From contig CAWCYI010000004.1 of the NCBI GenBank assembly GCA_963799845.1, positions 736,001 to 800,000 on the forward strand: 64,000 bases of DNA, read 5' to 3'. Every line of letters starts with the position of its first letter. The first letter of the stretch is position 1. The position numbers and the translations under genes were made by a program. Of this stretch, positions 43,449 through 62,376 are shown one piece after another. The notes under the pieces are model-generated. The model was not told the DNA's origin. It saw only the letters and a list, made by a program, of their open reading frames with translations, and did no database searches. Source of the stretch: an uncultured Nitrososphaerota archaeon. Its GTDB lineage: Archaea; Thermoproteota; Nitrososphaeria; Nitrososphaerales; CADDZS01.

Positions 43449-44106
43449 TCAAATCCGTTTTCTTTAGGTTAAGTTTCTTCCAGTATTGAAGTGTGTAGTC
43501 CCGGGACTCGAAGGCTGCCGAATACGATCGTTTCAAGAAAAAATCGCATCCTGAAGTTTCAAAAATACTTCATGACGTCTTGCTGTTTCTGTATCAACGA
43601 GGGCAGTTCGGTTTCAACATCCTTTTTTGGTTTCCTTCGGAAGAAGTGAGAGAGTAGCGTTTAGAAAAGTGTTGCAGAAATATTTCAGAAGCATGGAATA
43701 TCTCCGCCGAAACCAGGACCTTTGCTTGACCAAGTCGTTGACTACTCCGAACTTTTGATAGCATTCGGAATGAGTTTGCTCAAAGACGAAACAATCGAAT
43801 TTCAAATGCCAGCTGACGCGAGGTAAGTTTGGAGGGACATCGCGTTACTCCATGAGCCATCATACAGGTCTGCGGACATTCTCAGGGGGGGTGTCTGATG
43901 AGATGAGACGGTAATTTGAAAAATTGCAGAGTCCCTCAAGACGGAAGGGTGATGGTGAGATGGCGAGCTTTTGTCTCGACGCCTAAATGAAGTTCAATGC
44001 GTGCATCATTAAACCGGATCGTGGATTCACTTTTCGGCTTCTGTCGCTTAATGCATAATTGATTTAATTTGAAGAGGAACTTTCCTGAATCCAAGGAAAT
44101 CAAAAA

Positions 44107-45180: not shown

Positions 45181-45279
45181 TAAACTGAGATCGGAGGCAC
45201 GCGCAACTCGCGTGCTTTTCGAAAACTCGGGTGGCGTCGTTGTTTCAGGGGACACCCTGCAACTGAGATTTGATTTCCA

Positions 45280-45777
45280 ATGCTGGAAGAAGAGCAGAGT
45301 CACAAATCGACAAAGCAGAAGATCGAGGCCTGGCTTGAAGCCGAAGGAATCAGTTTCGAGCCGGTTTCGGACTTTAACGCATATTTTCACATCGCCGCGA
45401 ACCTGAAGAATATGCAGGTGCACTTGAGCGGGCCGAAGGTTCGGAAGGGCGTGCTCGCGGTCCAGGCGGTGGCATCGCTGGACGAGCAGCAACTCTGGAA
45501 GGCAAACCAGATCAGCCCCGAGGACAAGCGCTCAATATTCATCTCGCCATTCTCCAAGCTCGATCGGTCGGAATACCACTTCATGCTCCAGGAAGATTTT
45601 ACATCCAAGAGCTGGCTCAGGATACAGAGAACTCTGTACATCGAAGACATCTCCAGGACGAGCGTACTCCGAGAAATGAAAGAGCTCGACGTAAAGTTCG
45701 TTGCGGTGAATTATGATCTGAACGAGGCGCTCGACATCGCGCCGAAAGCCGTGCCGGAAGAGACGATTTACAAGTAG
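45280..45777 (+). CDS. DUF2299-like hypothetical protein
   Basis: IEAWLEAEG..AYFH..RTLYIED pattern. Confidence 0.55.
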   Translation: MLEEEQSHKSTKQKIEAWLEAEGISFEPVSDFNAYFHIAANLKNMQVHLSGPKVRKGVLAVQAVASLDEQQLWKANQISPEDKRSIFISPFSKLDRSEYHFMLQEDFTSKSWLRIQRTLYIEDISRTSVLREMKELDVKFVAVNYDLNEALDIAPKAVPEETIYK

Positions 45778-46402: not shown

Positions 46403-47005
46403 TTGATAAAAGAATGGATACACAAACTGAGATTACGCTATACTGGGCTTTTCAAAATAGGGACGTTTGGAATCAGTTCAGGATTGGGCTTCCTAGTTGC
46501 AGAGACCATCTTGACGATTGGTGTTCTGTTGATCTTCGGAAGCATCAAAGTGAAAACCGCAGTGTATTCGTCTCCCGTGCTCCTGGCACTTGACATATTC
46601 GCACTCAGCATCGGTGTTACTGTGTCTTTCTTCATCAACCAGACATCTTTCAAATGGGCCGACTTAATTGACCCGACGGGAGCTCTCTTTACGCGGTTGT
46701 TAAGATTTCAACTGGTATCGTGGGGAGGTAATGCGTTCATAATAGGTGTTCAGCTGCTACTTTTGAAGGAGTTTTCGATCTCTCCATCGGTTGGAAATGT
46801 TATAGGAGCTTTAGTGACTTTTCCCCTCGCATATCTATTCTCGATGCGGTATGTGTGGAAAAGTTCGAACGCGAGAAACGTCAAAGGGAACATTAAAGGC
46901 ACTACCTCTGGAAAAGCAATGACCTGCCAAAACTGCAGTCATCCTCTCCCTTCTAAGGTACTTCAGTTAAGAAGAAGGAGTTTCAGAGGCAACTTCTCGT
47001 TTTGA
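46403..47005 (+). CDS. GtrA-family membrane protein
   Basis: FKIGTFGISSGLG, SFFINQ, LRFQLVS, AYLFSMRYVW. Confidence 0.8.
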   Translation: MIKEWIHKLRLRYTGLFKIGTFGISSGLGFLVAETILTIGVLLIFGSIKVKTAVYSSPVLLALDIFALSIGVTVSFFINQTSFKWADLIDPTGALFTRLLRFQLVSWGGNAFIIGVQLLLLKEFSISPSVGNVIGALVTFPLAYLFSMRYVWKSSNARNVKGNIKGTTSGKAMTCQNCSHPLPSKVLQLRRRSFRGNFSF

Positions 47006-47006
47006 C

Positions 47007-47336
47007 TCAAACCTCTGGCAAGAGCTTGAGATCTTCTTTGATCGAGACGTACTGTCTCAGGAGCATGAATCCCTTTTCCGTGAGCTTGTAGAGTCTTTTT
47101 CCATCACTGTCTTGAGAAACCACTAGTCCCTGAGTTTCGAGGTCTTTGATGTACCCCTGCATCACTGTCCACGACAAGTTAGCCCTATACATTATGTGGG
47201 TTGGTTTTTCAGCACCGGCCCCGATCGCTTTGACGATGTCGCAGTATGTTTCCATCTTGGATCGTCTGTTGAGTTGCTGCTGGCGTGGTTGCTGAGTCTG
47301 AGTTGTCTGTCCTTCTACTAGAGATGTGGTTTCCAA
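47007..47336 (-). CDS. Winged-helix regulator
   Basis: RRSKMETYCDIV..KPTHIMYRANLSW..YKLTEKG. Confidence 0.85.
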   Translation of the reverse strand: METTSLVEGQTTQTQQPRQQQLNRRSKMETYCDIVKAIGAGAEKPTHIMYRANLSWTVMQGYIKDLETQGLVVSQDSDGKRLYKLTEKGFMLLRQYVSIKEDLKLLPEV

Positions 47337-47664
47337 TTCTGAGTTCTACTCCTGTCCTTTTCGATTATATCGTCAATAGATGTTCCCGGAATATATCCTT
47401 CCAAGCACGTTTTCGATAAGATAATTCGGATAGCTTCTGGAATTCGGCAACATTTCACTAAGATTTGAAATTCTCCGAGAAATTCGAACGAGCTGATCTC
47501 TGAGAAACATTTTCCCAAAACTACTGCTGAACAAGTCCGTAATTTAAGAATGAAAGGAAAATTCTAGAAAAGTTGAAGCTCAGCTCGATGGTTGCATCTG
47601 GCGAAGTTTCAACTCGGGACAGTTTTTGGCTCAAGCGCTAGTTGCAGAGCTTTCTAGAATCGCT

Positions 47665-48399
47665 CTAACCTGAAAACGCAAGTATGGATAACCCATTGGG
47701 AGTGAACGCGAGGCTGTGATAAGTCCTGTCGTGTTCTGTACCTCTCAACTTTTTGACGACAAACCTCGTTCTCATCTCCATTGATTCCGTCACGTAACTT
47801 TCGAGCTGGAAAATCCCGTCAGCCACAAATTCTTCTACGCCGGTTTGACGCGGTGAGTTTTTTGAAAAGTGCCTGGAGGCAGTCATCAAAGTTGTTATTC
47901 CCTCGCGCTTTAGCGTCTTGTATATCAGGTGCATCATGAAGGTATAATCGAACTTTTCCCCAGTTCCACTGAGAAAAGCCGTCAAGGAATCCACCACAAG
48001 TCGTTTGCCCTTGATCTCGTCCAATGCTTCAAGAAGAACCTGTATGTTTGAACTGAGGCCCCGTCCCTCAAGGGCTTCGAGGTCCAGCAGTTTCAATTTT
48101 TTCTTTGCCTCTAGCGCAGACAGGTCAAATCCAAATTTCATCATGTTCCTTTTGAGACTGCGGATGTCCTCCTCAAACGTAGCAAAGACCGCCGGCTCAT
48201 CCATCGTCAGAGCAGCGTTGTAAACAAACTCACATGAGAAAATAGTCTTGCCAGTACCCAGCCCGCCGATCAAGAGAACAAAATCTCCACGTTGCAATCC
48301 GCCCTGAATCATGGGGTCTAGACCTGGAATCCCAGTAGGAACGCGAGCGTCTTGATTCAATTCTAGCGATGCATCTCCTGAGCCTACTAAAAAATACAT
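47665..48399 (-). CDS. Single-domain KaiC/RAD55-like ATPase (1)
   Basis: PTGIPGLD, GGLGTGKT, FEE, LVVDSLT, KKLRGTEH. Confidence 0.9.
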   Translation of the reverse strand: MYFLVGSGDASLELNQDARVPTGIPGLDPMIQGGLQRGDFVLLIGGLGTGKTIFSCEFVYNAALTMDEPAVFATFEEDIRSLKRNMMKFGFDLSALEAKKKLKLLDLEALEGRGLSSNIQVLLEALDEIKGKRLVVDSLTAFLSGTGEKFDYTFMMHLIYKTLKREGITTLMTASRHFSKNSPRQTGVEEFVADGIFQLESYVTESMEMRTRFVVKKLRGTEHDRTYHSLAFTPNGLSILAFSG

Positions 48400-48609
48400 T
48401 GTTTAGGCTGCCAGCTCAGAGTGATCAGATTATTTCAATTGAATGGGAAATTCCTCAAAAGTGTAGTGCAAGTCTGAAGCACGGCTCCTTTTTGCTTAAT
48501 ACAATTTGAGACCATTTTTTCATTTTGATGCCCATAGAGATGCGGACAATAGGGTACTGTCGGTACTCGAAATCCGCGGGCAATCTTAGGGGAGACGTGT
48601 AAATCTCCC

Positions 48610-49485
48610 ATGCAAACAACGGTCGTTACTTCCAATCCCGCTTTTAGGGAAATCGTTTACGGCGGGCATTTGCTGGCCCTAGGGACCGCTAGCATCGCAG
48701 CGTCGAGTGCGATCATTCTTGGTCGTACTCCCAGCTTAATTCTCCTCGTTATGGCTTACCTTTTTTCTTACGGAGCTTACATGCTGAATAGAGGCTCCGA
48801 AGTAGCGCAGGACAGCGTCTCCGATCCCGCGAGAACAAATTACCTTCAGGGCCGCAGCAGATACCTGATGGTGATTTCCGGTCTCTGTTTCGGGATCGGA
48901 TATCTTCTAGCCGCGACCGTTAATTTGGTTTTTCTCGGTGCACTGTTGATCCCGCTCGTTCTAGCGGTTACCTATACCATCGGTTCGAAAAAACTGGTGT
49001 CGTTAATCGGCGCAAAACGACTCAAAGAGAAACTCCTCGTGAAAAATCTCGTCATCTCCTTTGGGTGGTCGCTCATTCCAGTTCTTGTTGGACTATATTA
49101 CAGGAGCGTTCCGATATTTCTCCTTGCGTTCGCTCCTTACATTTTCTTCAGGCTGATGTCGAACACTGTCTTCTTCGACCTACGCGACGTTAGAGCAGAC
49201 AGTGAGTTTGGGGTTCGAACTATCCCCGTTGTTTATGGAACCGGGTTAGCTTACAGGTTGATGACAATATTCGATTTTGTCTCCGCTGCTTACATCCTTC
49301 TGCTAGTCACATTTCGCCTATTTCCAACATTCACCCTTGTCATGATCTTGCTCCCCGCGTACTCTTTGATCTATAGACGGATCTCTCAGAGTCCTGGCGC
49401 AAATCTTGGATTGTTGTGCGATTTAGTCGCCGATGGTGAATACCTCCTATGGGGGCCCTTATTGTTCTTTGGAAAAATTATCTAA
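48610..49485 (+). CDS. UbiA-superfamily membrane prenyltransferase
   Basis: Multi-TM; NRGSEVAQD..PAR, RLKEKLLVKN, DLRDVRADSEFGVRTIP. Confidence 0.85.
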   Translation: MQTTVVTSNPAFREIVYGGHLLALGTASIAASSAIILGRTPSLILLVMAYLFSYGAYMLNRGSEVAQDSVSDPARTNYLQGRSRYLMVISGLCFGIGYLLAATVNLVFLGALLIPLVLAVTYTIGSKKLVSLIGAKRLKEKLLVKNLVISFGWSLIPVLVGLYYRSVPIFLLAFAPYIFFRLMSNTVFFDLRDVRADSEFGVRTIPVVYGTGLAYRLMTIFDFVSAAYILLLVTFRLFPTFTLVMILLPAYSLIYRRISQSPGANLGLLCDLVADGEYLLWGPLLFFGKII

Positions 49486-50503
49486 GCTTGATAATCGGCT
49501 TCAAGGACGCCCCGTTGACCTAGATACTATTATCCAAAAATACCGCCTTGCCATTGAGAAGGCGATAAAGGAGACCGACCTAATCCAAGGGTCTCCCCTT
49601 AGCAAGGAAGCGAAGATAGTTATGGAAGCAGGTGGAAAGAGGCTTCGACCGGTACTCGTCCTTATGGGCTGCGAAGCAGTATCGGGTCAGTTCGAGACGG
49701 CGATACCCGCGGCGATGGCTTATGAGCTGGCGCATGAAGCATCCTTGGTGCAGGATGATATTTTCGATAACTCCGATTTGAGGCACGACAGGGAAACTGT
49801 TCACAAGCGGCAGGGGCTCATTATTGCGGTCCTCGTTTCCGATCTTATGATTTTCGAGATTTTTACTCAACTCGCAAAATACGAATCTTCGGAGCTGACG
49901 AAAGCCAAGCTCGCGAAATTGATGACGTACATTTCAAGAGCGGCAAATCTCACAATAAAGGGCGAGTTTCTTGAGGCAAAATACGCGACCAAATCAAGCT
50001 TTTCTGAGGAAGAATACCTTGAAGTTGCAAAGCTGAAGACTGGTTCGCTTCTTGCGGCAACGGCGGCTTCGGGTGCCCTGGTGGGTGGCGGAAGCGAGAA
50101 TATCGTCGACTCTATGTATCAGTTTGGACTGAACCTCGGAATCGCCTTCCAGATCAGGGATGACATCCTTGATGTCAGCGGAAACCAGGCGCAGCTCGGA
50201 AAGCCGGTGCTCAAAGATCTTCAAAACAACGTCTGCAATATAGTCTTGATCAACGCGCTCGAAAGAGGGGACGCGTATCATAAGAGCCAGATCAATTCAA
50301 TGCTTTACAAGAAATGGTTCGCTATGCCTGATGTCCAGAGCCTTCAGAGTTTGCTGAATGAACTGAAAGCCGTGGAATATGCTTCGAGCCTCGCCGAGAG
50401 ATATACCTCACTGAGCAGAGAATGCTTGGCGTCATTACGAGAATCACCTGTTAAGGATAAACTTCTCGGCCTGACCTACGCACTTGAGACGAGGAAAATC
50501 TGA
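49433..50503 (+). CDS. Trans-polyprenyl diphosphate synthase family protein
   Basis: GGKRLRP, SLVQDDIFD, LKTGSL, FQIRDDILD, LGKP; start uncertain (overlaps ubiA). Confidence 0.9.
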   Translation: MVNTSYGGPYCSLEKLSKLDNRLQGRPVDLDTIIQKYRLAIEKAIKETDLIQGSPLSKEAKIVMEAGGKRLRPVLVLMGCEAVSGQFETAIPAAMAYELAHEASLVQDDIFDNSDLRHDRETVHKRQGLIIAVLVSDLMIFEIFTQLAKYESSELTKAKLAKLMTYISRAANLTIKGEFLEAKYATKSSFSEEEYLEVAKLKTGSLLAATAASGALVGGGSENIVDSMYQFGLNLGIAFQIRDDILDVSGNQAQLGKPVLKDLQNNVCNIVLINALERGDAYHKSQINSMLYKKWFAMPDVQSLQSLLNELKAVEYASSLAERYTSLSRECLASLRESPVKDKLLGLTYALETRKI

Positions 50504-50566
50504 CCCAAATGATAAAGATAAATGTGATAGAAGCGTCCGGCGTGCAAGGGAGACTCTGACAAGGTC

Positions 50567-51253
50567 TTGAGCGAGAGCACACTGTTGAAAGCGGATAGAA
50601 TACCGACCGGGATAAATGGACTGGATGGGCTGATCCAGGGGGGACTGATGCGAGGAGATGTTCATCTTATTACCGGGGGCCCCGGGACGGGAAAGACGAT
50701 CCTGGCATCGCGATTTGTTTTCAATGCCGCCAAGAATCTAGGGGAACGAATAGTGTATGCGACATTTGAAGAATCTTCGGAATTTTTCAAGAAAAATCTT
50801 GCAAAGCTTGGAACCGATTTTTCCTCTCTCGAGAAGGAAGGAAAAGTCAAAATTATCGATCTTGAGATCCTCCGGGGAAAAGGTTTGGAGTCGAACATAT
50901 CATATGTAATTGAGCTCGTAGCAAAGGCCAGAGCTTCGATTCTGGTGATAGATTCGCTGACCGCGCTTTTACTTGCGTGCGAGACTCAGTTTGAGCAGAG
51001 GACTTTCATGAAAACGGTTTACAAATCGCTAAAGGCAAAAGATGTGACCACCGTGATGACCGTCAGTCTTGATGAGGACGGTACGGTCGGTTCGGAGGGC
51101 TTCATGTCGGACTCGGTGATGTTTCTAGAAAATTGGGTTGACAAGAATCAGTTCAAGACGAGATTCCTCATTCAGAAGATGAGGGGAACTGATCACAGCA
51201 GGAGATATCACAGTTTCACGCTTGGCCCAGACGTATCGGTATCCAGGTTTTAG
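50567..51253 (+). CDS. Single-domain KaiC/RAD55-like ATPase (2)
   Basis: PTGINGLD, GGPGTGKT, FEE, VIDSLT, KMRGTDH. Confidence 0.9.
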   Translation: MSESTLLKADRIPTGINGLDGLIQGGLMRGDVHLITGGPGTGKTILASRFVFNAAKNLGERIVYATFEESSEFFKKNLAKLGTDFSSLEKEGKVKIIDLEILRGKGLESNISYVIELVAKARASILVIDSLTALLLACETQFEQRTFMKTVYKSLKAKDVTTVMTVSLDEDGTVGSEGFMSDSVMFLENWVDKNQFKTRFLIQKMRGTDHSRRYHSFTLGPDVSVSRF

Positions 51254-51262
51254 ATTGATGCG

Positions 51263-52690
51263 ATGGCTATCAATTCGGCGGCACTCGTTGTTCCAGCAAT
51301 AGACCTCGGTACACTCATTCTAACTGCTCTGTCAGGATATTACGTATCCAGGCAGAGCACTACACTTTACAAAGAAGTTAAGACGCTCCTTCTGTACGTC
51401 CATGTTTTCTTTGGTGGAGTGCTCGTCCTTGAATTCATAAGAAACTTTGTTCCGACCGTAACCCCGTATTCGCAGACAGCCATTATTTTCATGGATATCT
51501 ACACCATCCTCGGAACTAGCTTTATCCTCTGGGATGTCCTGCTGCTGATGACCGTTGGCGCGGCGGTATACATCAAACCTGAAGGTCAGGGATTAAGAGA
51601 ACTTCTGGTCGCGATTATTCGACGGAAAAATACCGGGGTCGTCTACATGATAGTTGCCGCGTTCGTTCTCGGATCCGATATCTATCTCGCATTTGTATCG
51701 CCGTTCACCATAGTAAGTGTCCAGAACATTGCGGGAATCACAGTTTTATCGACACAGTTCGATCCCAGTTATTTGATTCTTGTTCTAATTGTCCTTCTGC
51801 TTTTCCTGACTTACCCTACGACGTTGTTCATTCTCGCAAGAATGAAGACGAAAGACAAATCTGTCCGAAGAGCTCTACTTCTGTTACCAATCGTGTGGAG
51901 CGGAATCGGAGTAGACCTCGTAATTTTCAATGGTTTCTTCCTCTCGGAGGGACAAGATTACGTAGCGGTAGGATATCTCTTTGCTTCGATAGCCTTCGCG
52001 GTGACCGCAACTATTTTCAGAAGGGCGTCCTTATTATCTGGATTCTTCGGTCCTATCTCGGATTTGCAAATTAAGACATCGACACCGACGTACCCGTTTT
52101 CGAACTCGATCAAGATCGATCCTCAAACCCTGATCGGGCGAACCTTTCTATTTTTGACAGATCCTTCAACACCGTACGAAAGGGTGGTCGATGATCTCTG
52201 CATCGAGCTCCTGTCGAACAAGTGCTACGCGTTCGTATTTACCTCAAAGCGGAGTCCAATACAGACCTCACTATCAAAAGTAAAAGGAGTCAGGTATTAC
52301 ATTTTGACTTCCTCTGTATCCTACCCCCGAGGGACCGACGTACCCGACGAAATTCTGGTTCCACAGAATGATCAGGCCATACTTCTCGACATCATTCAGA
52401 AAACTATTCAGAACGATCCGGAATCGAAACTGGGAATCATTTACGACAACATTTCAGATATGATCCTGTCCTCCAGCGTTGAGAGTGCTTACAAGTTTCT
52501 GAAACAGGCAAACGAGATAATCGATCCGAAGAGAGTCATGGCGATGTTTCTCTTTACTCCTGGAGCTCACGATGACCGGACAGTAAACTTGGTGAAAGCG
52601 CTCTTCGCAAATCACATCGCGATGAACAAGGATGTTCCGCAACTAGCTGAGATAGAATGTACTTTGCAGCAACTCGGCGTTTCGAGCTGA
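51263..52690 (+). CDS. 7TM membrane sensor fused to an inactive KaiC-like (DUF835-type) domain
   Basis: Seven hydrophobic segments in aa 1-252; C-terminal GRTFLFLTDP (degenerate P-loop), IIYDNISDMIL..AYKFL, PGAHDDRTVNLVKALF. Confidence 0.7.
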   Translation: MAINSAALVVPAIDLGTLILTALSGYYVSRQSTTLYKEVKTLLLYVHVFFGGVLVLEFIRNFVPTVTPYSQTAIIFMDIYTILGTSFILWDVLLLMTVGAAVYIKPEGQGLRELLVAIIRRKNTGVVYMIVAAFVLGSDIYLAFVSPFTIVSVQNIAGITVLSTQFDPSYLILVLIVLLLFLTYPTTLFILARMKTKDKSVRRALLLLPIVWSGIGVDLVIFNGFFLSEGQDYVAVGYLFASIAFAVTATIFRRASLLSGFFGPISDLQIKTSTPTYPFSNSIKIDPQTLIGRTFLFLTDPSTPYERVVDDLCIELLSNKCYAFVFTSKRSPIQTSLSKVKGVRYYILTSSVSYPRGTDVPDEILVPQNDQAILLDIIQKTIQNDPESKLGIIYDNISDMILSSSVESAYKFLKQANEIIDPKRVMAMFLFTPGAHDDRTVNLVKALFANHIAMNKDVPQLAEIECTLQQLGVSS

Positions 52691-52710
52691 GCCGCAGACA
52701 GGTAAAACAA

Positions 52711-52808
52711 GCTGTTTCAATTGAACAGAGCTTGATTTATCACCGTCAGCCGAACAGTGATCTTTTTCACCGTTAGGTCGAACAGAACCGAATTTTTTCT
52801 ATATAAGG
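52711..52808 (+). promoter_or_regulatory. Tandem ~28-bp repeats, TTCAATTGAA palindrome and TATA box
   Basis: GAACAG at 52723, 52752 and 52780; TCACCGTCAGCCGAACAG 52740-52757 vs TCACCGTTAGGTCGAACAG 52767-52785; TATATAAG 52800-52807. Confidence 0.55.
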
Positions 52809-52826
52809 ATCAATGAGAGGTAGTAT

Positions 52827-52904
52827 ATGAAGAACTGTAGAAAACAACCCGAGTCAAGAAACAGGTTGCTCCTTGTTAAAGCGCGTGATTATTTATCACG
52901 GTAA
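52827..52904 (+). CDS. Candidate 25-aa peptide MKNCRKQPESRNRLLLVKARDYLSR (or small RNA)
   Basis: ATG 27 nt after the start of the TATA box; fills the gap between convergent genes; ends in hairpin CGTGAT-ATCACG. Confidence 0.35.
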   Translation: MKNCRKQPESRNRLLLVKARDYLSR

Positions 52905-52909
52905 GAGAA

Positions 52910-54013
52910 TCAGTTTTCGACTTTGGCGCTCTGGGCTTCCAGAGCTGGCGTCGGCGACTGCATCTGCAACAGTCTCCAGCCGCGCTCGCGGTCGTAGAGC
53001 TCATCTGGAACGTTGAGGAATTGAGTCTTCGTGGGATCTAAGATTATCATTTCTTTCTTCGTGGCAAGAAGGGAAGTATATGTGTCAAGGTACGACACTG
53101 TCTCGTGGAAATACTCCAGCGGAACATCCATGAATGCGAAATAACCCCTATTCTCAAAAGCGGCTTCAAGCAAAGTAAAGGGAATCTTGTTGCAAAGTTT
53201 TCTCACTGAATTCAGCTCCTCGGGTTCCAGACCCTTGAAAATTACGGCAATCTGCATTATCTCGGGAGTTCTGCCCGCGACCAGTCCCTTCGTCCAACGA
53301 ACGTTATTTCCGAGAATGAGCTTGCCCTTCTGAACGTGCTCGGCGTAGTGGTATCTGATCGTTCTCGCGTTTGCTCCCAGATTCTTTGCTATCTTCGAGG
53401 GGCTTATCGTGGGATCCTCCTGCATGTACCTCAGGATTTTCGTGTCGATATAGTCCACCTTCGCATCAGTGTTTACCAGGTGCGACGTCGGTCCCATCTC
53501 TGTCTGGGTCATGTCTACCCTCTTCCAATCGACCTTCCATCTGCCGCTGTCCAGGTCGAAGAATTCCGATCTCATGGGAGGGTACCTTATCCACGAGATC
53601 TCGGTGGACTCGAACTCATCGACCAATCCGAGGTTTTGCAATTCAGTTATCGAGTCGAGGTACTTTTTCTTGAAGCGGTTAGGCAGTGCGTACAGGCAAA
53701 CATATTTTTCCTGTCCCATGACCTTGCTGATGAGAATCAGGTAACTAGCACGATCGAGCCAAGTCCTACCGGCGTTCTGATCAGGCTTTACGACCAGCAT
53801 CCCCATCGTGAATCCAAGTTGAGCATAGTCAATGTTTACAAGAATGCCTAAACCAAGTTTGCCCAGCTGCTTGTTGACTTTATACCGGACTGTTTCCGCA
53901 CTAAGTCCGGTGAGTCTCGCGATGAGGGAATAATTTGAAACACCAACTTGCCTGATCGTTTCTATCAACAGGTACTCTGTGGTGCGGGATATGCCACCGC
54001 CGCTATCAGACAA
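52910..54013 (-). CDS. Double Lrp/AsnC-type HTH regulator
   Basis: Two HTH units: YSLIARLTGLSAETVRY and DTKILRYMQED..KIAKNLGANARTIRY. Confidence 0.75.
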   Translation of the reverse strand: MSDSGGGISRTTEYLLIETIRQVGVSNYSLIARLTGLSAETVRYKVNKQLGKLGLGILVNIDYAQLGFTMGMLVVKPDQNAGRTWLDRASYLILISKVMGQEKYVCLYALPNRFKKKYLDSITELQNLGLVDEFESTEISWIRYPPMRSEFFDLDSGRWKVDWKRVDMTQTEMGPTSHLVNTDAKVDYIDTKILRYMQEDPTISPSKIAKNLGANARTIRYHYAEHVQKGKLILGNNVRWTKGLVAGRTPEIMQIAVIFKGLEPEELNSVRKLCNKIPFTLLEAAFENRGYFAFMDVPLEYFHETVSYLDTYTSLLATKKEMIILDPTKTQFLNVPDELYDRERGWRLLQMQSPTPALEAQSAKVEN

Positions 54014-54239
54014 TTGGGTAAAGACATAGTTTAGGTCATGAAGGGCGTATAAATCGAAAATGAAGTCGGGATACAGATCCAGACTAGGCTTTTGATATAT
54101 ATCGCCAAATCATATTATGCTCTAAGAAATTAATTTGCCGTTTTATCTCAAAGTGGAGACTAGCGTTGTGGGAAAGATGACAACAGAGATAACTACGCAG
54201 CGCGATATTTCTACCATTACTCTGGTTAGTGCTTAATCA

Positions 54240-54989
54240 TTGGAAACAAAAGAGCAGCAGCAGTTCCCTTCATTTGCTAACGTACTGAAGCCGAGTGCCG
54301 GCGTTCGCATCCCCACCGCGATACCCGGACTGGATCCGTTGATTCAGGGAGGTCTCAACCGCGGGGATTTCATTCTCCTGTCTGGAGGAGTAGGCGCAGG
54401 CAAGACTACATTCTCCTGCCAGTTTGCTTACAACGGAGCGACGTTCCTCAACGAGCCCGCGGTGTTTGCAAGTTTTGAGGAAGATTCGCTCAGTCTGAAG
54501 CGAAATATGCTGAGATTCGGCATGGATCTTGAAACTCTCGAAAGAGACGGGAAGATCAAGATCATGGACCTCGAGATCCTCGAAGGTCAGGGGATGGGCT
54601 CAAACATGGAGGTATTGCTCAGCGCTCTGGACAAGATTCAGGGGAAGCGATTGGTCGTTGACTCGCTCACCGCGTTCCTCACCGGCGCGAAGGACAAGTT
54701 CGATTACAGATTCCTGATGCACCTGATCTACAAGACTTTGAAACGGGAAGGGGTCACGACGATGATGACGATAAGCAGGATGCAGAACGATAGCCAGATT
54801 CTCGGCGTCGGTCTGGAAGAGTTTGTCGCCGACGGTATTTTCCAGCTCGAGAGCTACGTGACTGAAACGATGGAGCTGAGGACGCGGTTCTTGGTCAGGA
54901 AACTCAGGGGCTGCGATCACAGCCGGAAGTATCACTCAGTAGCCTTTTCTCACGAGGGCATCCAGATTCTACCCTGGTCGTCGTCCTGA
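54240..54989 (+). CDS. Single-domain KaiC/RAD55-like ATPase (3), close paralogue of (1)
   Basis: GGVGAGKT, FEED, KRLVVDSLTAFL, MHLIYKTLKREG, EEFVADGIFQLESYVTE shared with 47665-48399. Confidence 0.9.
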   Translation: METKEQQQFPSFANVLKPSAGVRIPTAIPGLDPLIQGGLNRGDFILLSGGVGAGKTTFSCQFAYNGATFLNEPAVFASFEEDSLSLKRNMLRFGMDLETLERDGKIKIMDLEILEGQGMGSNMEVLLSALDKIQGKRLVVDSLTAFLTGAKDKFDYRFLMHLIYKTLKREGVTTMMTISRMQNDSQILGVGLEEFVADGIFQLESYVTETMELRTRFLVRKLRGCDHSRKYHSVAFSHEGIQILPWSSS

Positions 54990-55314
54990 GACATCCGCTC
55001 AGCTAAATTTTCAAGCCGCAGAGCTAGCCTTGCGTCTCCCCACAGGATTTCGGGTACGTGCAAAAGACCTGCGTACCTCAATGACGTCCAAAACCGATGT
55101 GCTCTAAACAGAAATATTGAAACCAAGCTGTTGTTGGCCAGCAGACCTTGAAACGATCTCTTCGGTACCCAGAATTGCACCGTTGCGCACACGTGCAAAA
55201 TTCGCATAATAAATCAATGAAAGTGAAACTATTGGCTTTAGGAAGTTAGTTAGGTCCACAGGTACGAGAAGAAGACCTGGATCAGTATGCCCTAAAATAT
55301 CGTGAAAAATGCAC

Positions 55315-57912
55315 TCATACTGGAGAAGTCAGTGCAGTGGATTCCAAGACTCCCTGATCCGTGGTCAAAGTAATCAAGTAATGCTGATTTGTGTTCCAAG
55401 AAAATGAAGTCAGAGGAGCAGATAACTGCTCACTGGGCCCCAGCTCGAAATCAAAACTTCCGATTACTCCTAATGCCGAGGAATTTGTGTCATAGTGCAC
55501 TAAGGTGGCAGAGACGGTATTGTAGATGTACAGACTGATCAGATGGACTGCGAACGGACTGTTATTAACAGCCGTAATCACCGGGATCGACGCGAATCTG
55601 ACGTTGAAAGGGCTGGAAGAGCCGCTTGTCCACACCGCCCCGCTGCCTCCGTACGTTGATGACAGACCCGCAATGGAGGTCTCCGATGAACTCACGGTCT
55701 GGATCGAGCTCCACGAATTGCCGAAATTCGTGCTGTAAAGCGTGGAAAGGGTGGTCCCCGAGCCGTAGAATACGATGAGTGTCTCGGATGGTTCCTGGGA
55801 GATTGAAGTCAACCACCCCGAGCTTGAGCTCTGAAGTTGCGTTTCAGACGATGTTGCTGAAGCGCCGTTCGCAAAGCTCCAAAAATTAACCGTACCCGAT
55901 ATAACCCCAGTACTACCTGAAGCTAATCCTACAAAATATAGAGTGTTGCCGATCGCCGTTGCTGATGAGGAGAAGAGCATGTAATCTGACGATGGCGAAA
56001 CCGGACTTGACCAGCTTGCACCAGTTGTAGTCGTAATAACGTTGACCGCAGCTGTTACACTGCCCTCTCCGTATATTAGGGCAATGCCATTCGAGAGAGG
56101 TACAAGAATCGGTGTAATGTCCGCTGGCTGGGGGGAGATGTCGTCTTCCTTCGCCCAAGAGCCCGATGAATACTTCCAGACTTCAATGTGCGCATTGGTT
56201 CCGTCGTTGGTGTTGAGGGCTACCCAGACGTTTCCGGAAGAATCGGTGACTATCGAATCGTAGGAACTAACCTTGTTCGTCGTGGACACTGTAGTCTGCG
56301 AGATCGCCCAGTTAATTGTTCCACCGGATTGTAGTGCCCCGTATCGCCAAGAGAATGACGCGCTCTGTTTCGCTGCATCTAAAACGTAGTAAAAGGTGTT
56401 CCCGCTGACCCAGATGTTGAAATTGTAACCGTCGGTAGAATCGGCGGATGAAGTCAAGATAGTCTCACTGCTCCAGACCGACCCGTCGGCCGAGGTGCGA
56501 TAACCAATGTTTGTGCCGTCGCTGTAGAACGCCCACCACAATCCCTGTGAGTAAACGAGCTTGTGTTGAAAGTCGTAAGAAGTAGCAGTGCCCGTGGTGA
56601 CCAGTGCAGCGAAGCTCGTGCTCGGCATGACACCATTCGGCGGGTAGAACCGGGCCCTATTCCAATTGAAATAGATACTGACGGCTGAAGAGCCACCTAT
56701 CGCTCCCAGATAGAGGTGAGTTGCTGCGCTGAGTGGGTTGTTTGTTTCTGTGGCAGTATAACCACCTGTCGTTGAATAGAGCTGGGGAGCATCATACGCG
56801 CTCCACGAGGTCGAGCTCGTCCCTGGGTAAGTCACACTGCCGTACACCCAAGTTCCCGCCGCTGGCACTGCTCCTGCTCCATTTACAGGGATTGTCACCG
56901 CGCCAGAGATGTCGTAAGCTTGGAAGAAATAGTCACTACCAAATCCCATACCCATGCCGATTCCATTGTTCGTACCCGATGCCGTTGCTGCGTTCATCAG
57001 TCCTGTGACGCCTGTTCCATCAGCTGTATCTGCGGCTAGTGCAAAGCTCGACTCTGTAATTATTCCTACATTGCTCAAAGCTGTATTGAACACGAAGGCA
57101 GGGGCATGAGCACCGGAGGTGCCAGAGATTTGAATTGCGTTTATAGTTGCTCCTCCCGGCCCGATAACGCCAGTTGCCTTTGCTACCGTCAGTCCGGCAT
57201 AAACTGAAAATCCCGAGGTCGCCGTATTGCCGTTGAAATATGCCGCAAAGACACTGGCTCCGTTATCATATTGGCCGTATGTCGCTGACAAACTTGGGGC
57301 CTCTCCCCAGTAGTTGTCATCGAAATTGGTAGATGTAGGTTGGAAGACCATGTATATTATGAGTGTCCCACCACTTGCTGATATCGATGATGTCAGTTTG
57401 ACCCAGACGGTTGCTGACGTCGCTGCTGTTGTACAGGAAGGAGTACACGATTCCAGCCAGGCAAAAAGTTGAGTATTGCACGCGTAATCCTGGCAGAATC
57501 TTATGTTGCCCAAGTTGGAAGCCTCGATTGTTGAATCCGAAGATGGATTGAAAACTATCATTTGTTGAAAAGTCGTTGGAGTCGCGGACGTCTGACTATT
57601 CGTTATCGTTATAGGGATGTAGGCTGACTGTGACGATGATGTCGTAATTGTGTTCGCACTTGCCCCAAAAGTTAGCTGTGAAATGTCAAGTGAAGTCTGA
57701 TCCTGCTGTTGCACTGAGTGATCGTACTGCAGCAACTTAGAGTTGTAGTTATTGTAATATCCGAAAATCGTGGTAATAGTTGTCAGCCCTAACATTAGGA
57801 TAAGTACGAAAATGAGAGTGCCGATTACGGTCGATACGCCCGATCTTCTATTGCCAAGAGCTCTCCTGTGAAAGTGTTTTTTCCTTGATAAAATGGGGCT
57901 AGATGCTTGCAT
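55315..57912 (-). CDS. Large type IV pilin-like adhesin with DUF2341 domain
   Basis: Class III signal RRSG|VSTVIGTLIFVLIL; IPITITNSQ..NIRF..AWLES..VWVKL..YGQYDNG; Ser/Thr/Trp-rich beta region; pilin-like end ITLTTDQG. Confidence 0.8.
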   Translation of the reverse strand: MQASSPILSRKKHFHRRALGNRRSGVSTVIGTLIFVLILMLGLTTITTIFGYYNNYNSKLLQYDHSVQQQDQTSLDISQLTFGASANTITTSSSQSAYIPITITNSQTSATPTTFQQMIVFNPSSDSTIEASNLGNIRFCQDYACNTQLFAWLESCTPSCTTAATSATVWVKLTSSISASGGTLIIYMVFQPTSTNFDDNYWGEAPSLSATYGQYDNGASVFAAYFNGNTATSGFSVYAGLTVAKATGVIGPGGATINAIQISGTSGAHAPAFVFNTALSNVGIITESSFALAADTADGTGVTGLMNAATASGTNNGIGMGMGFGSDYFFQAYDISGAVTIPVNGAGAVPAAGTWVYGSVTYPGTSSTSWSAYDAPQLYSTTGGYTATETNNPLSAATHLYLGAIGGSSAVSIYFNWNRARFYPPNGVMPSTSFAALVTTGTATSYDFQHKLVYSQGLWWAFYSDGTNIGYRTSADGSVWSSETILTSSADSTDGYNFNIWVSGNTFYYVLDAAKQSASFSWRYGALQSGGTINWAISQTTVSTTNKVSSYDSIVTDSSGNVWVALNTNDGTNAHIEVWKYSSGSWAKEDDISPQPADITPILVPLSNGIALIYGEGSVTAAVNVITTTTGASWSSPVSPSSDYMLFSSSATAIGNTLYFVGLASGSTGVISGTVNFWSFANGASATSSETQLQSSSSGWLTSISQEPSETLIVFYGSGTTLSTLYSTNFGNSWSSIQTVSSSETSIAGLSSTYGGSGAVWTSGSSSPFNVRFASIPVITAVNNSPFAVHLISLYIYNTVSATLVHYDTNSSALGVIGSFDFELGPSEQLSAPLTSFSWNTNQHYLITLTTDQGVLESTALTSPV

Positions 57913-57937
57913 TTGTCGTTTACCTGTACAGAATAGC

Positions 57938-60457
57938 CTAGCTTGGGGAAGTTAGAGTCGAGGAAAAAACTACTCCCTGATCTGTTGTTACGGTGATGAT
58001 ATAATTCTGACTTGTAGTCCAAGCAAATGAGCTAAGAGGGATTGACATAGTTTCGCCAGCCCCTATCTGATTATCGAAACCAGCGCTTACTCCGGGCGCA
58101 GAAGAATTTGTGTCGAAATGAACTAGGGTATTAGTAACAGTGTTCAAAATGTACAAGCTAATCATGTGGACTGCGAACGGACTGTTATTGACGGTACTAA
58201 AAGTCGGAATCGCGGCAAATCTAACGTTGAAGGGACTAGAGCTCCCACTCGTCCAGAGTGCAGCACTTCCCCCTTCTGCAGAATTGACTCCAGTGACCGA
58301 TGTCTCGGAAGAGCTGATAGTTTGAATGGATGACCAGGTCGTACCAAAGTTGAGACTGGAGAGCATGTACAGATTCGATCCAGCTCCGTAAAATACAACA
58401 AGCGTTTTCGAAGGCTCTTCGGATATCGAAACCGACCAGCCGGAAGTAGTTCCCTGTAACTGTGTTTCGGACGATGTAGAACCCGCCCCACTGGTAAAAG
58501 TCCAAAAATTAAGAGCCCCAGTAGTCGCCCCAGCACTACCTGAGGCCAGTCCGGCAAAATACACAGTGTTTGTGATCGAGTCCGCTGAAGATGAAAACAA
58601 TGAATAATCGGATGGAGGTGAAACCGCTGCGCTCCAGCTAGAGCCCGTAGCACTCGTGATTATCCTAACGGGGGCGGTTACACTTCCTTCTCCATAGATC
58701 AAAGCAACCCCTGATGAGAGCGGAACTAGCATCGCCATCTCGTCAGTTGAAAGCGGAGAAATGTCATCGACTTTGCTCCACACTGCCGCGGAGTATCTCC
58801 AAACTTCAACATGAGTATTAGTACCATCATTAGTATTTAGGGCGACCCAGACGTTCCCGAAAGAATCCGTTGCCATCGAGTCGTAGGAATAAACAGTGTT
58901 TGTGGTGGTGACTGTCGTCTCCGAAATCGTCCAGCTAATCGTCCCTGAACTCTGGAGGGTTCCATAACGCCACAGGAAGGATGCACTCTTGCCATATCCT
59001 GTCAAAACGTAATATATCGTGTTGCCACTTGTCCATATGCTGAAGTCGTAACCTTTCGTTGAATCGGTCGATGAACTGACTGTCGTGGGGCTGCTCCAGA
59101 CTGAACCATCCGGAGACGTTTCGTACGCGATGTTTGTACCGTCACTGTAAAACGCCCACCACAACCCTTGGGCATAAACTAGTTTGTTCTGCGCGCTGTT
59201 CGAGGTCGCGGTTCCAGTGGGAATAACTAATGCGGCAAAGGCGGTTGTCGGCATGACGTTGCTAGGCGGATAGGCTCTCATTCTCGCCCAGGTGAACGTG
59301 CTGCTTGACTGAACTCCGTTTGGTTCTCCAATATAGATACCATAGTTTGCAATCGCAACCCCGTTGTTACTCCCCGTATAGGTGTTCCCGACGCCGTCGC
59401 TGAAGTATTGTGTAGCCGTTGCGGACCAGGTGACTTGCCAAATCCCTGCGGGGAATGACGCTTGGGCGGTCGTGTGAAGGTTGGTATGGGTACCTGAAGC
59501 CTGATACGTCATGTGATCGTCGCCGCTGGCCCAATTTAACGAATAGCCAGAGTAAAGAGCAGTAAAACTGTTGGTACTTTGTGTGGTTGCAACTCCGAGA
59601 ATCGAATTTCCGCTAGCGGTATAGGTTTCAGCGACAAGTGGGTACGTCTGAGTAGCGGACACTATGAAGCCGTAACCCGCACTCGTAGTGAGAGTGACTG
59701 TCAGACCGTTGTTCACCGTAATGGTTGCTGAACTCGTGATTGATGTCCACTTGGCGCTTAATGAGCTACCAGCAAAATTATCGTAAAACGTGAAGACGTT
59801 GGCACCGTTGTCATATTGGCCATACGTACCGGAAATGCTCGGGGCCTCGCCCCAGTAGTTGTCATCGAAATTTGTGGTAGTGGGCTCGAATACCATATAG
59901 ACTATCAGAGTTCCACCGCTTGCCGCTATCGAAGATGTTAATTTGACCCAGGCGACGGCAGACGTTGCGGAGGTCACACAAGAAGGCGTGCACGATTCCA
60001 ACCAAGCAAAAAGCTGCTTAGAGCAAAAGGTATCTAGACAGAATCGAATGTTTCCCAAATTCGAGGCCTCGTACGTTGAATAGGTAGAGGGATTGAAGGT
60101 AATCCTCTCTTGGAAAGTGGTCGGTGTTCCAGATGACTGACTATTAGTGATCGTGATCGCGACGTAAGCTAAGGATGCGCTGGTTGAAGTTGCAATCGTA
60201 TTTGCACTCGCCCCAAATGTAAACCCGGATATCGAGAGAGAAGTCTCGCCTCTCTGGAGGGCCGACTGATTGTACTGGAGGAGCTGAGAGTTGTAGCTAT
60301 TGTAGTAACTGAATACAGCCGCAATTGTCGTTAGTCCGGTGAGCAGGATTAGGACGAAAATCAAAGATCCGATTACGGTGGAGATACCCAGTCTGCGATT
60401 CTTGGACCGAAATTCTTTCGGCTCGGCTTCATAGGTCACACGGCTAAGCCTTGGCAT
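57938..60457 (-). CDS. Large type IV pilin-like adhesin with DUF2341 domain, paralogue
   Basis: RRLG|ISTVIGSLIFVLIL; same architecture as 55315-57912. Confidence 0.8.
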   Translation of the reverse strand: MPRLSRVTYEAEPKEFRSKNRRLGISTVIGSLIFVLILLTGLTTIAAVFSYYNSYNSQLLQYNQSALQRGETSLSISGFTFGASANTIATSTSASLAYVAITITNSQSSGTPTTFQERITFNPSTYSTYEASNLGNIRFCLDTFCSKQLFAWLESCTPSCVTSATSAVAWVKLTSSIAASGGTLIVYMVFEPTTTNFDDNYWGEAPSISGTYGQYDNGANVFTFYDNFAGSSLSAKWTSITSSATITVNNGLTVTLTTSAGYGFIVSATQTYPLVAETYTASGNSILGVATTQSTNSFTALYSGYSLNWASGDDHMTYQASGTHTNLHTTAQASFPAGIWQVTWSATATQYFSDGVGNTYTGSNNGVAIANYGIYIGEPNGVQSSSTFTWARMRAYPPSNVMPTTAFAALVIPTGTATSNSAQNKLVYAQGLWWAFYSDGTNIAYETSPDGSVWSSPTTVSSSTDSTKGYDFSIWTSGNTIYYVLTGYGKSASFLWRYGTLQSSGTISWTISETTVTTTNTVYSYDSMATDSFGNVWVALNTNDGTNTHVEVWRYSAAVWSKVDDISPLSTDEMAMLVPLSSGVALIYGEGSVTAPVRIITSATGSSWSAAVSPPSDYSLFSSSADSITNTVYFAGLASGSAGATTGALNFWTFTSGAGSTSSETQLQGTTSGWSVSISEEPSKTLVVFYGAGSNLYMLSSLNFGTTWSSIQTISSSETSVTGVNSAEGGSAALWTSGSSSPFNVRFAAIPTFSTVNNSPFAVHMISLYILNTVTNTLVHFDTNSSAPGVSAGFDNQIGAGETMSIPLSSFAWTTSQNYIITVTTDQGVVFSSTLTSPS

Positions 60458-60950
60458 TTGTTACCACCGTATTGCCTAACTGCGTCGCTATGATGAAACT
60501 GTACGTCGTGCCAACGTCCGGGGTAAAGGTAACCGCGATAATCTGGAATGATCCAGAGTTGATCTGCTTTGTGGGAGAGAGGGTATAGGACAGAACAAAT
60601 TTGCTTGCCGTGACATTAGTGATGTAAACAGCGGCAACTATTGTCGGGTTCACTCCATCGTTTCGAACGTACAGATTCACGCCGAGCTTCGATCCAGTTT
60701 CGTTGAACGTTACTTGTTCTACTACCACCCTTTCAGACAGAGCATTTGCTGAATTACCGAACAGATTGGACAAATTCGAACCCAGTCCCGAAAACCCATT
60801 CGTAGCATAGGCAAAGATCGTGGCAGAAAGTCCGACAACTATGACGATCATCAGAAGGGAAGCGATTATTTCGCTGATTCCTTGTTTCTTTCTTCTGCGA
60901 GTTCTATTCGAGATTTCAAAATAGCCTGATCTCGAATATCTTCCTGTCAA
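60444..60950 (-). CDS. Archaeal type IV pilin
   Basis: RRKKQG|ISEIIASLLMIVIVV class III signal; LYVRNDG, IIATQLGN. Confidence 0.88.
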   Translation of the reverse strand: MTGRYSRSGYFEISNRTRRRKKQGISEIIASLLMIVIVVGLSATIFAYATNGFSGLGSNLSNLFGNSANALSERVVVEQVTFNETGSKLGVNLYVRNDGVNPTIVAAVYITNVTASKFVLSYTLSPTKQINSGSFQIIAVTFTPDVGTTYSFIIATQLGNTVVTNAKA

Positions 60951-61355: not shown

Positions 61356-62376
61356 CTAGTGGAGCGTAGCGGTTATCGAACCACCGAATTCGATTGACGG
61401 CGCAGGCCAAAGAACATTGTAAGTCCCATCGAGGGTCAGACCTTTCGGATCTGACATCGAAAAGGAGCCTATCGACGAAAATCCGGTTTCAAGACACGTT
61501 CCAGGAAGACCTACAGGGGAGCAATCTATGGTGCCTGTAGTGGGAATCGTGGAAGTGCCTTGGAATCTACCGTTCGAGTTGAGCGAGCTAGGAGTCATTC
61601 CGACTAGAGCAATCTGACCCTTGTCATTCGCTGTTCCGGTCACGTAATTCTCGTCTGTCGCTATTTTCTGAGTAAAACTTCCTGAAACCGCAGTTGATTT
61701 TCCAATTGTACCCGTTAGGGTTCCGGCTGTCTGGACACCGTCCCAGTGAGTCATGGCGTGGTTATAGGTTGCGACGACGAGTAGCGATCCGTCCAAAGAT
61801 GATATCACTATTGGTGCACCGAAGGGATTCAACGCTGCGTCCTCGATTAAGAGAGTAACATCGTATTTCGGAGAAACGTTGGAATCGAGCTGGACTCTAA
61901 GGTGTCCGCTTGCGACAAAGTACGCAGGAATTTCACTCGTATCACTTGCAAGACAGACTCCCTGTGACGGTGTAAGACGGGAAACACACTGCCGGAATGG
62001 AGCTGCTTATGGTTGTGTGAACTCTCAGGTCGATCGTTCTGCCGTCTGCAGTCGTGCCCTGGAGTTGAAGTTTGAAGCTTCCTTTAGTTGAAAGACCGTT
62101 TACATCTGCTGAAAGATTGTAATTGACGCTAGTCCATGTGACATCAGATAACACGGGAGTCGAGATGTCTGAAGCAAGTCCAAGAACTCCACCAGACATT
62201 GTCCAATGCTGAGGACCTGCATCTGTGATCCATCCATCGGAAATGGTAAGAGCAACCGGCTGTGCATTCGTTGAAGCGGTTGCGTTGTAAGAATCAGCCC
62301 TAACGGTAATCGGGCTTGCGAATAGCAACAGTGCCAATATCGATAAAGTTGCGATTAACACAAAACTTGTTTTCAA
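61356..62376 (-). CDS. Secreted beta-rich hypothetical protein, +1 frameshift in a homopolymer near 61962
   Basis: Sec signal MKTSFVLIATL..VRA; continues VCLASDTSEIPAYF into ORF 61356-61832. Confidence 0.7.

Follow-up and report, generated by a model that had tools for sequence, protein, structure and literature searches.

We describe a group of eight genes from an uncultured Nitrososphaerota archaeon in which two predicted prenyl-lipid enzymes are encoded in one operon with a predicted seven-transmembrane (7TM) sensor and a KaiC-family ATPase. The window, i.e., the whole stretch of DNA that was analysed, has a length of 64,000 nucleotides and corresponds to positions 736001-800000 of contig CAWCYI010000004.1 (C4:736001-800000), part of a 4.6 Mb genome that consists of 9 contigs and is 86.7% complete. 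Genes were called from open reading frames (ORFs), and domains were assigned with Pfam and NCBIfam profiles against curated cut-offs. Positions are those of the window unless preceded by C4. The eight genes, referred to below as the module, are located within 47007-54989:

47007-47336, minus strand: winged helix-turn-helix (wHTH) protein of the HTH_45 family (PF14947, 70.4 bits), with a homologue near the module in most loci
47665-48399, minus strand: KaiC_A, an active-type single-domain ATPase, divergent from the operon (PF06745, 170.7 bits)
48610-49485, plus strand: divergent, intramembrane UbiA-like prenyltransferase (PF01040, 55.5 bits against a cut-off of 34.2)
49433-50503, plus strand: trans-polyprenyl diphosphate synthase, PPS (PF00348, 205.8 bits)
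50567-51253, plus strand: KaiC_B (PF06745, 157.2 bits; Walker A GGPGTGKT)
51263-52690, plus strand: predicted 7TM membrane sensor of 475 amino acids (DUF7504 24.6, DUF7090 21.3 and DUF835 19.4 bits, all below cut-off)
52910-54013, minus strand: Lrp/AsnC-like regulator of 367 amino acids (HTH_24 38.1 and HTH_AsnC 34.8 bits, second half only)
54240-54989, plus strand: KaiC_C (PF06745, 174.8 bits), the conserved divergent partner of the Lrp-like gene

An original prediction, made from the letters of the window, had named these genes and several of their neighbours, and ORF calls together with Pfam and NCBIfam profiles recovered each of them where it had been placed. The tightly spaced operon that it had proposed, running from the UbiA-like gene to the 7TM gene, was also recovered, as the four plus-strand genes overlap or are separated by gaps of at most 63 nucleotides. 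As called, the UbiA-like and synthase genes overlap by 53 nucleotides (either 49433 or about 49469 may be the synthase start), followed by gaps of 63 nucleotides between the synthase and KaiC_B and of 9 nucleotides between KaiC_B and the 7TM gene.

Proteins encoded by the module

Members of the UbiA superfamily are defined by two Asp-rich motifs, NxxxDxxxD and DxxDxxxD. The UbiA-like protein contained both motifs in addition to a PF01040 domain above cut-off. Its first motif, N60-R-x2-[ED]64-x3-D68, has Arg in place of the usual Asp after Asn and was highly conserved among 36 sequences (N60 in 33/36, [E/D]64 in 35/36 and D68 in 34/36); the second motif, D190-x2-D193-x3-D197, was invariant (36/36). 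The protein did not reach any NCBIfam equivalog (the best match was PRK13591, 48.6 bits against 238) and fell outside the equivalogs for digeranylgeranylglyceryl phosphate (DGGGP) synthase, MenA, heme O synthase, 4-hydroxybenzoate prenyltransferase and chlorophyll synthase. Sequence and profile searches of the PDB detected only chlorophyll synthase (E = 0.011 and 0.0045), and a protein atlas search gave generic UbiA matches only.

The second enzyme is a trans-isoprenyl diphosphate synthase with a PF00348 domain and both DDxxD motifs, DDIFD as the first (FARM) and DDILD as the second (SARM) Asp-rich motif, which were present in nearly all of the 33 aligned orthologues. Judged by these residues, the catalytic motifs of both enzymes are intact. 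It is known that chain elongation is stopped by an aromatic residue at position -5 relative to the first DDxxD. Ala/Ser were found at positions -5/-4 before the FARM in the window synthase and in all 31 archaeal orthologues aligned, and Tyr or Phe was found at -5 in the closest solved enzymes, which are archaeal geranylgeranyl diphosphate (GGPP) synthases and their relatives (1wy0, 5jfq, 4dhd, 6kd7). Besides having Ala at -5, the protein scored well below the profiles of archaeal short-chain GGPP synthases (GGPP_syn, 187.5 against 500; IdsA, 216.2 against 468). Because Ala/Ser occupy the place where GGPP synthases have Tyr/Phe, the rule predicts that the product is probably longer than C20 and retained in the membrane.

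The membrane protein was modelled with AlphaFold from an alignment of 36 homologues, with a predicted local distance difference test (pLDDT) score of 86.8. The model contained a 7TM bundle (residues 1-262; membrane helices at 5-262) with a single beta-hairpin (148-166), followed by a C-terminal RecA-like alpha/beta domain, the inactivated KaiC-like (DUF835-type) domain at about 290-462. In Foldseek searches, the C-terminal domain matched FlaH (4yds; template modelling (TM) score of 0.53 on the target), PH0284 (2dr3) and KaiC, and the helical bundle gave weak generic matches to seven-helix receptors. The alignment revealed no Walker A motif (GxxGxGKT) in the C-terminal domain. DUF835, DUF7504 and DUF7090 each matched 26 of the 36 homologues (best DUF835 E = 1e-7); the window protein itself scored 19.4 bits with DUF835 against a cut-off of 33.1. 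Because the fold is RecA/KaiC-like and lacks Walker A, and because the family matches DUF835, DUF7504 and DUF7090, the protein is assigned, on the strength of the model, to the inactivated-KaiC type, in this case fused to a 7TM sensor domain.

A profile of the 7TM domain matched 143 cluster representatives among 1.84 billion. Ten longer forms of this family were inspected, and eight of them contained MEDS, DUF835, DUF7090 or DUF7504, one had DUF7090 only and one had no match; none of the ten contained a histidine kinase domain, and the only fusion partners detected were of the inactive-KaiC type. MEDS followed the 7TM domain in P0160, P0183, P0189, P0195, P0198, P0199, P0216 and P0225 (about 600-645 amino acids). 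In P0183, P0189, P0195 and P0198, a further domain of the DUF835/DUF7504/DUF7090 type was located after the MEDS-bearing 7TM part, and P0254 contained the later domain only. The forms with MEDS plus a DUF835-type domain thus mimic a two-domain KaiC in which neither half is active. In the genome of the window, we also identified a second 7TM/inactive-KaiC paralogue (C4:1531468-1532949, about 44% identical), which is paired with its own KaiC gene of 292 amino acids. By eye, this pair (C4:1530407-1532949) is flanked by transposase-like genes, and inspection of its neighbourhood revealed no lipid enzyme.

All three KaiC paralogues are single-domain ATPases of the KaiC family. Each combined a PF06745 domain with Walker A, the catalytic Glu pair and Walker B, and the FEE motif was retained together with both Walker motifs in the alignment. 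They are distinct from circadian KaiC, being single domains of 228-249 amino acids that scored 137-160 bits with PRK09302 (cut-off 408). KaiC_A and KaiC_C were 63.6% identical, and KaiC_B was 43-44% identical to either. KaiC_A, which occurs in its window position only in loci of the same genus, is a genus-specific duplicate of KaiC_C. KaiC_B is the presumed transducer partner of the sensor, and the wHTH protein is a candidate output of the module. The other regulator had been called a double-Lrp protein in the original prediction. It is indeed Lrp-like; the duplication was weakly supported (its halves aligned with E = 1.1e-4 and a probability of 56% in hhalign), and the protein is possibly a tandem duplication. 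In other genera, the Lrp-like gene heads the operon.

Conserved linkage and distribution

We scanned 185,579 species genomes with the UbiA protein and obtained 30 loci, 27 in metagenome-assembled genomes classified as Nitrososphaerales, Nitrososphaeria, Thaumarchaeota or unclassified archaeon, and three in Patescibacteria. Genes of the archaeal loci were mapped by BLASTP against the window proteins, and 26 loci were tabulated, one with a 63-residue UbiA fragment being left out. The synthase gene directly followed UbiA in 25 of the 26 loci, with a gap of -83 to +1 nucleotides; in the single exception, the contig stops 1 nucleotide past UbiA. Downstream, the 7TM sensor gene was located in 23 loci, and none of the 21 with 3.5 kb or more of sequence on that side lacked it; KaiC_B was inserted between synthase and sensor in 14 of the 23. 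On the other side, the Lrp-like gene was directly upstream of UbiA in 19/26 loci (16 of the 19 loci with at least 1.2 kb of upstream sequence), and the three exceptions are the closest relatives of the window, in which KaiC_A occupies that place. Where the sequence extended 2.2 kb or more upstream, which was the case in 17 loci, a KaiC gene was present there without exception.

Rearranged versions of the module were also observed. The genus of the window carries an inversion within the module. Among five further genome loci that were mapped (G008, G011, G012, G029 and G039), G011 contained two sub-operons, PPS>KaiC_B>7TM and KaiC_C>secreted protein>UbiA>7TM, and in G029 the module genes were scattered. 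Two other genomes, G007 and G010, had the G011-like layout minus UbiA, with a 7TM gene in each sub-operon. Identity to the window proteins dropped to 50-59% for UbiA and to 35-45% for the sensor. Since the genes remain together at such low identities and in shuffled order, the linkage has outlasted both divergence and rearrangement, and its recurrence across genera and families argues against a chance juxtaposition. Thus, conserved linkage of UbiA, synthase, sensor and KaiC, a check attached to the original prediction, was borne out across Nitrososphaerales loci.

The three Patescibacteria matches led to six UbiA-like loci in five genomes. Occurrence of this gene in Patescibacteria was limited (4 of 301 sampled genomes at E <= 1e-20). 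In the window genome, the module UbiA was the sole match of each of the six proteins, its five paralogues giving none (E <= 0.01); among the paralogues, it is the reciprocal best hit. A gene for a 7TM histidine kinase came directly after UbiA, with an overlap or within 10 nucleotides, in five of these loci, and the kinases were homologous to each other, their N-terminal region consisting of seven helices. The L093 kinase contained HisKA_7TM, HisKA and HATPase_c domains and the L095 kinase HisKA and HATPase_c; those of L098, L100 and L101 were recognised by BLASTP to these two. A polyprenyl synthase gene was found near UbiA in three of the six loci. In L100, PPS, UbiA and kinase genes overlap in this order; in L095, the synthase is 2.3 kb upstream, with HTH_3 and GAF genes between it and UbiA; and in the sixth locus, L096, UbiA is divergent from the synthase and next to DXS and IspG. 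The archaeal and bacterial pairs thus share a homologous UbiA subfamily and a seven-helix sensor encoded directly after it, and differ in that the Patescibacteria pairing is rare, has a HisKA/HATPase output and involves a non-homologous 7TM domain. No similarity between the two 7TM domains was detected by BLASTP, hhalign gave E = 0.7, and HisKA_7TM touched only one of the 36 archaeal sensor members (E = 6.9e-4). By analogy, this pairing supports the idea that the enzyme and a membrane sensor belong together. To our knowledge, a pairing of UbiA with a 7TM histidine kinase in Patescibacteria has not been described, and it suggests a wider, overlooked link of UbiA-type lipid enzymes with intramembrane sensors.

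The original prediction had also called for a check on separate housekeeping genes, and the two module enzymes proved to be extra paralogues rather than sole copies. The genome contains four PF00348 and six PF01040 genes. Besides the module gene, the UbiA family is represented by one DGGGP-synthase-like gene (234 bits with PRK12884), one MenA-like gene, two genes that score above the heme O synthase cut-off, and one more; the other PF00348 genes are a GGPP-synthase-like gene with Trp/Ile at -5/-4 and two further synthases. At E <= 1e-40, the DGGGP-synthase-like gene was detected in 11/12, 14/14 and 12/14 genomes of families f1, f9 and f14, and the GGPP-synthase-like gene in 12/12, 14/14 and 13/14, respectively; both are near-universal in these families. 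Distribution of the module UbiA was patchy. Orthologues were found in 48 of 401 genomes of the order: 8/12 in f1, 34/97 in f9, 3/15 in f14, 1/2 in f18 and 1/6 in f19, with no match in f4 (0/9), f8 (0/11), f12 (0/112) and f15 (0/112). These tallies include one unpublished genome, G001, on which no claim depends (f1 is 7/11 without it). In a 41-genome sample, amoA was present in families f4, f8, f12 and f15 only (2/2 each), and it was not found in the window genome. Taken together, families without amoA had the module UbiA in 47 of their 156 sampled genomes, and amoA families in none of 244. The module is therefore an accessory system of non-ammonia-oxidising Nitrososphaerales. In these organisms, which are abundant, uncultured relatives of the ammonia oxidisers from soil and groundwater, it may bear on management of the envelope or surface proteins.

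A possible lipid-sensing circuit and its alternatives

We tentatively interpret the module as a make-and-sense circuit for a membrane lipid that is transduced by KaiC, and give this interpretation a probability of about 0.45. The polyprenyl diphosphate synthase would make a chain, probably longer than C20, which the divergent UbiA-type enzyme would then move onto an acceptor inside the membrane. The 7TM bundle may detect the resulting lipid, or the membrane state created by it, within the bilayer; such an input is suggested because the sensor has essentially no extracellular domain. The inactivated KaiC domain of the sensor could then modulate the active ATPases KaiC_B and KaiC_C. From these, the signal may pass to the two regulators, wHTH and Lrp-like, which would control the operon together with nearby genes for secreted or surface proteins. 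In this scheme, we infer the chain length, the product as the sensed ligand, the contact between KaiC and the inactive KaiC domain and the regulatory targets. We lean towards an action of the lipid that is cell-autonomous or of contact range.

KaiC-like ATPases with inactivated-KaiC sensors have been proposed to be a main signalling machinery of archaea with few two-component systems, and we know of no ligand assigned to any inactivated-KaiC membrane sensor. The module offers a concrete and testable candidate, namely the lipid made by the two co-operonic enzymes. Archaeal signalling networks of KaiC-like ATPases, inactivated KaiC and wHTH proteins were reportedly proposed by Makarova, Galperin and Koonin (mBio 2017). 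The module shares with these networks an active KaiC beside a sensor-fused inactivated KaiC (DUF835/MEDS) and a wHTH protein, here in the form of three KaiC genes, one 7TM-DUF835-like sensor and HTH_45, and differs from them in that its operon includes a dedicated UbiA/synthase pair, from which the sensed molecule might come. KaiC/inactivated-KaiC/wHTH signalling is thus already known as a proposal, and we propose that the coupling to enzymes is the new part.

Other known systems resemble the module in part. DesK is a five-helix histidine kinase that controls a desaturase encoded elsewhere. Like the module sensor as interpreted here, it is a polytopic protein that reads the membrane, is tied to a lipid-modifying enzyme and carries no large external domain; however, its transduction chemistry is different, and in the module the enzymes share the operon with the sensor. 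Intramembrane sensing of lipid state of the DesK type is treated in PMC8301901. In PMC4858521, KaiC-family ATPases and MoxR/vWA sets are predicted to regulate archaeal type IV pili, the former also surface structures in general. The module has in common with these sets a KaiC near pilin or surface genes and, in 12 loci, a CbbQ/MoxR set, and it differs from them by containing no assembly ATPase or platform gene and by having adjacent pilins only in the window. In PMC5847659, the term iKaiC is used in table notes and the 2017 KaiC paper is cited. No description of a coupling of KaiC/iKaiC to UbiA/polyprenyl-synthase genes was found in the literature searched; supplementary tables may list the neighbourhood. 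Judged largely by titles and abstracts, the papers found on archaeal quorum sensing and isoprenoids, and those on UbiA enzymes and histidine kinases (PMC12419801 among them), contained nothing relevant. In addition, the main text of a paper on the Gagatemarchaeaceae, a non-ammonia-oxidising thaumarchaeal family (PMC10640624), mentions no KaiC, prenyl, isoprenoid, pili, quorum or UbiA.

Several observations weigh against a make-and-sense circuit. Of the 23 sensor-holding loci, 9 have no KaiC_B in the operon, and sensor paralogues exist without an enzyme gene nearby. G007 and G010 (both 88% complete) have no UbiA match anywhere and keep PPS, KaiC_B and 7TM, so that the UbiA product is not an obligatory ligand everywhere. 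All archaeal cases fall in one order; vertical inheritance therefore adds to the synteny, and the related genomes are not independent. The parallel in Patescibacteria involves six loci in five genomes and, as the 7TM domains have no detectable homology, it is an analogy only. Finally, the chain length of the synthase product is a prediction from a general rule.

The original prediction had favoured a quorum-sensing-like system, in which a released prenylated autoinducer would act through the 7TM receptor on adhesion and type IV pili. As in autoinduction circuits, one operon does combine the synthase with a receptor, a transducer and regulators, and their linkage is conserved; surface proteins recur nearby, and the Patescibacteria order PPS>UbiA>polytopic kinase resembles comQXP in outline. 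ComQ of Bacillus ComQXPA belongs to the same enzyme family as the polyprenyl synthase, and like that system, the module has a polyprenyl-synthase-family enzyme in one operon with a polytopic receptor and a regulator. Yet the ComQXPA analogy did not hold up. No plausible ComX-like small ORF was found in the module, and since its genes overlap or abut in most loci, there is no room for a precursor-peptide gene. Moreover, the synthase keeps both Asp-rich motifs, a UbiA-type transferase is present in addition, and the receptor output consists of inactive KaiC and a KaiC ATPase in place of a histidine kinase and response regulator (HisKA, HATPase and REC domains were absent from the module genes in Pfam and NCBIfam searches). 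The notion of a diffusible signal fared no better, as a lipid of more than C20, predicted from Ala/Ser in the synthase, should stay in the membrane and diffuse poorly, and the conserved set contains no exporter gene. Control of pili was not supported either, because the pilin and adhesins adjoin the module in the window only and the nearest pilus ATPase gene lies 26 kb past the window end. We consider such a released signal improbable. The same degree of doubt applies to a lipid pheromone circuit, in which synthase and transferase would make a prenylated lipid that is passed by contact or vesicles to the 7TM receptor, with KaiC output. It would be the first archaeal circuit of autoinducer type, and Patescibacteria would have reached the same logic independently with a homologous UbiA and a 7TM histidine kinase.

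The main rival is regulated synthesis of a lipid or lipid carrier. In that case, the sensor would read another cue and the enzymes would be the output, providing for example a polyprenyl-phosphate carrier for glycosylation of Ser/Thr-rich surface proteins. A long-chain product would suit a carrier lipid, and the adjoining secreted and adhesin-like proteins are indeed very Ser/Thr-rich. A PMT-type GT-C glycosyltransferase gene was found downstream of the wHTH gene in 7 loci, although these belong to one clade only. In the window, a GtrA-like gene abuts the module, and in mycobacteria, synthesis of the arabinan donor involves a UbiA-type enzyme together with a GtrA-like protein; however, the GtrA-like protein scores below cut-off, and its gene was present at the module in no other mapped locus. 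Archaeal glycan carriers normally derive from cis-prenyltransferases and not from PF00348 enzymes. Regulated synthesis also leaves unexplained why sensor, transducer, regulators and enzymes share an operon and why UbiA is adjacent to a sensor gene in Patescibacteria, and we regard it as somewhat unlikely. Direct control of the enzymes, with the 7TM/inactive-KaiC protein binding UbiA or synthase and gating its activity post-translationally together with KaiC, would fit the gene overlaps, which suggest stoichiometric co-production, and the presence of a separate 7TM gene for each enzyme gene in G011. Conservation of the wHTH and Lrp-like regulators points instead to a transcriptional output, sensor paralogues occur without an enzyme gene nearby, and the second 7TM gene persists in G007 and G010 although UbiA is missing there. 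A complex prediction for the 7TM domain with UbiA gave a score of 0.00, which is uninformative in either direction. Such direct control appears slightly less probable than a released signal. Least credible of all is the absence of any functional coupling, i.e., that the genes are neighbours through shared ancestry. The archaeal cases are all from Nitrososphaerales and their genomes are not independent, but adjacency survives rearrangements and identities of 35-59%, overlaps are maintained, and outside the Archaea, in bacteria, a UbiA homologue is found together with an unrelated 7TM sensor.

Genes around the module

The following features adjoin the module:

46403-47005, plus strand: GtrA-like membrane protein (PF04138, 24.3 bits against a cut-off of 26.1, E = 3.7e-5)
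55315-57912 and 57938-60457, minus strand: two large proteins in tandem, 839-865 amino acids, with pilin-like N-termini (58% mutual identity)
60444-60950, minus strand: small pilin (TIGR02537, 25.2 bits against a cut-off of 20)
61356-62376, minus strand: frameshifted gene for a secreted all-beta protein, with homologues adjoining KaiC_C in 11 loci

The pilin that the original prediction had placed next to the module is a type IV pilin by TIGR02537, and the N-termini of its large neighbours are similar to it by eye only. Its gene overlaps that of the second large protein by 14 nucleotides. Relatives of the large proteins were found at C4:852652-855258 and C4:1527738-1528733. The link of pilins to the module did not extend to other mapped loci, where no pilin homologue was found beside it and a single gene similar to those of the large proteins was detected, in L058; it is other secreted and surface proteins that recur. 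The module and its flanks contained no pilus assembly ATPase or platform gene; the closest pilus ATPase genes are at C4:825965 and C4:868236, the former being the one 26 kb past the window end. The GtrA-like gene abuts the wHTH gene with a 1-nucleotide gap; it was considered as part of the module and excluded because it is not conserved there (no copy beside the module in any other locus mapped with that query). A scan for bacterial-type promoters and terminators gave results at chance level (10 against 9.8 expected, and 10 against 8.6).

The secreted protein is about 350 amino acids in length. In its window copy, one frameshift near 61940 separates two ORFs (61942-62376 and 61356-61832), which could reflect a pseudogene or an assembly indel; an intact paralogue of 350 amino acids is encoded at C4:847933-848985. 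A structural model of this protein (pLDDT 86.8) gave only spurious porin matches (TM <= 0.17), and Pfam gave none. A second copy of the sensor was detected in 6 loci, and a Big_1 Ig-like protein in 6 loci. A CbbQ/MoxR-type AAA gene, together with three genes without Pfam matches (about 566, 146 and 206 amino acids), adjoined the module in 12 loci (L056, L059, L060, L062, L069, L070, L073-L075, L079, L080 and L090). In the genome of the window, this set is located about 80 kb from the module, at C4:879765-884606. A small NitrOD5-domain protein and the PMT-type GT-C enzyme were encoded after the wHTH gene in L076-L078, L083 and L086-L088, and NitrOD5 alone in L089.

Upstream of the module, on the plus strand (43089-45777), we observed a second HTH_45 wHTH gene (43089-43448), FtsZ (44107-45180) and DUF2299 (45280-45777), which were not counted as part of it. 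On a larger scale, the module is located in a stretch of about 110 kb (C4:780000-895000) that is rich in surface-related and signalling genes. This stretch contains T2SSE-type ATPases (825965 and 868236), Big_1-like and adhesin-like genes at about 830k, 852k and 862k, the paralogue of the secreted protein (848k), the CbbQ set (880k) and another KaiC (893k).

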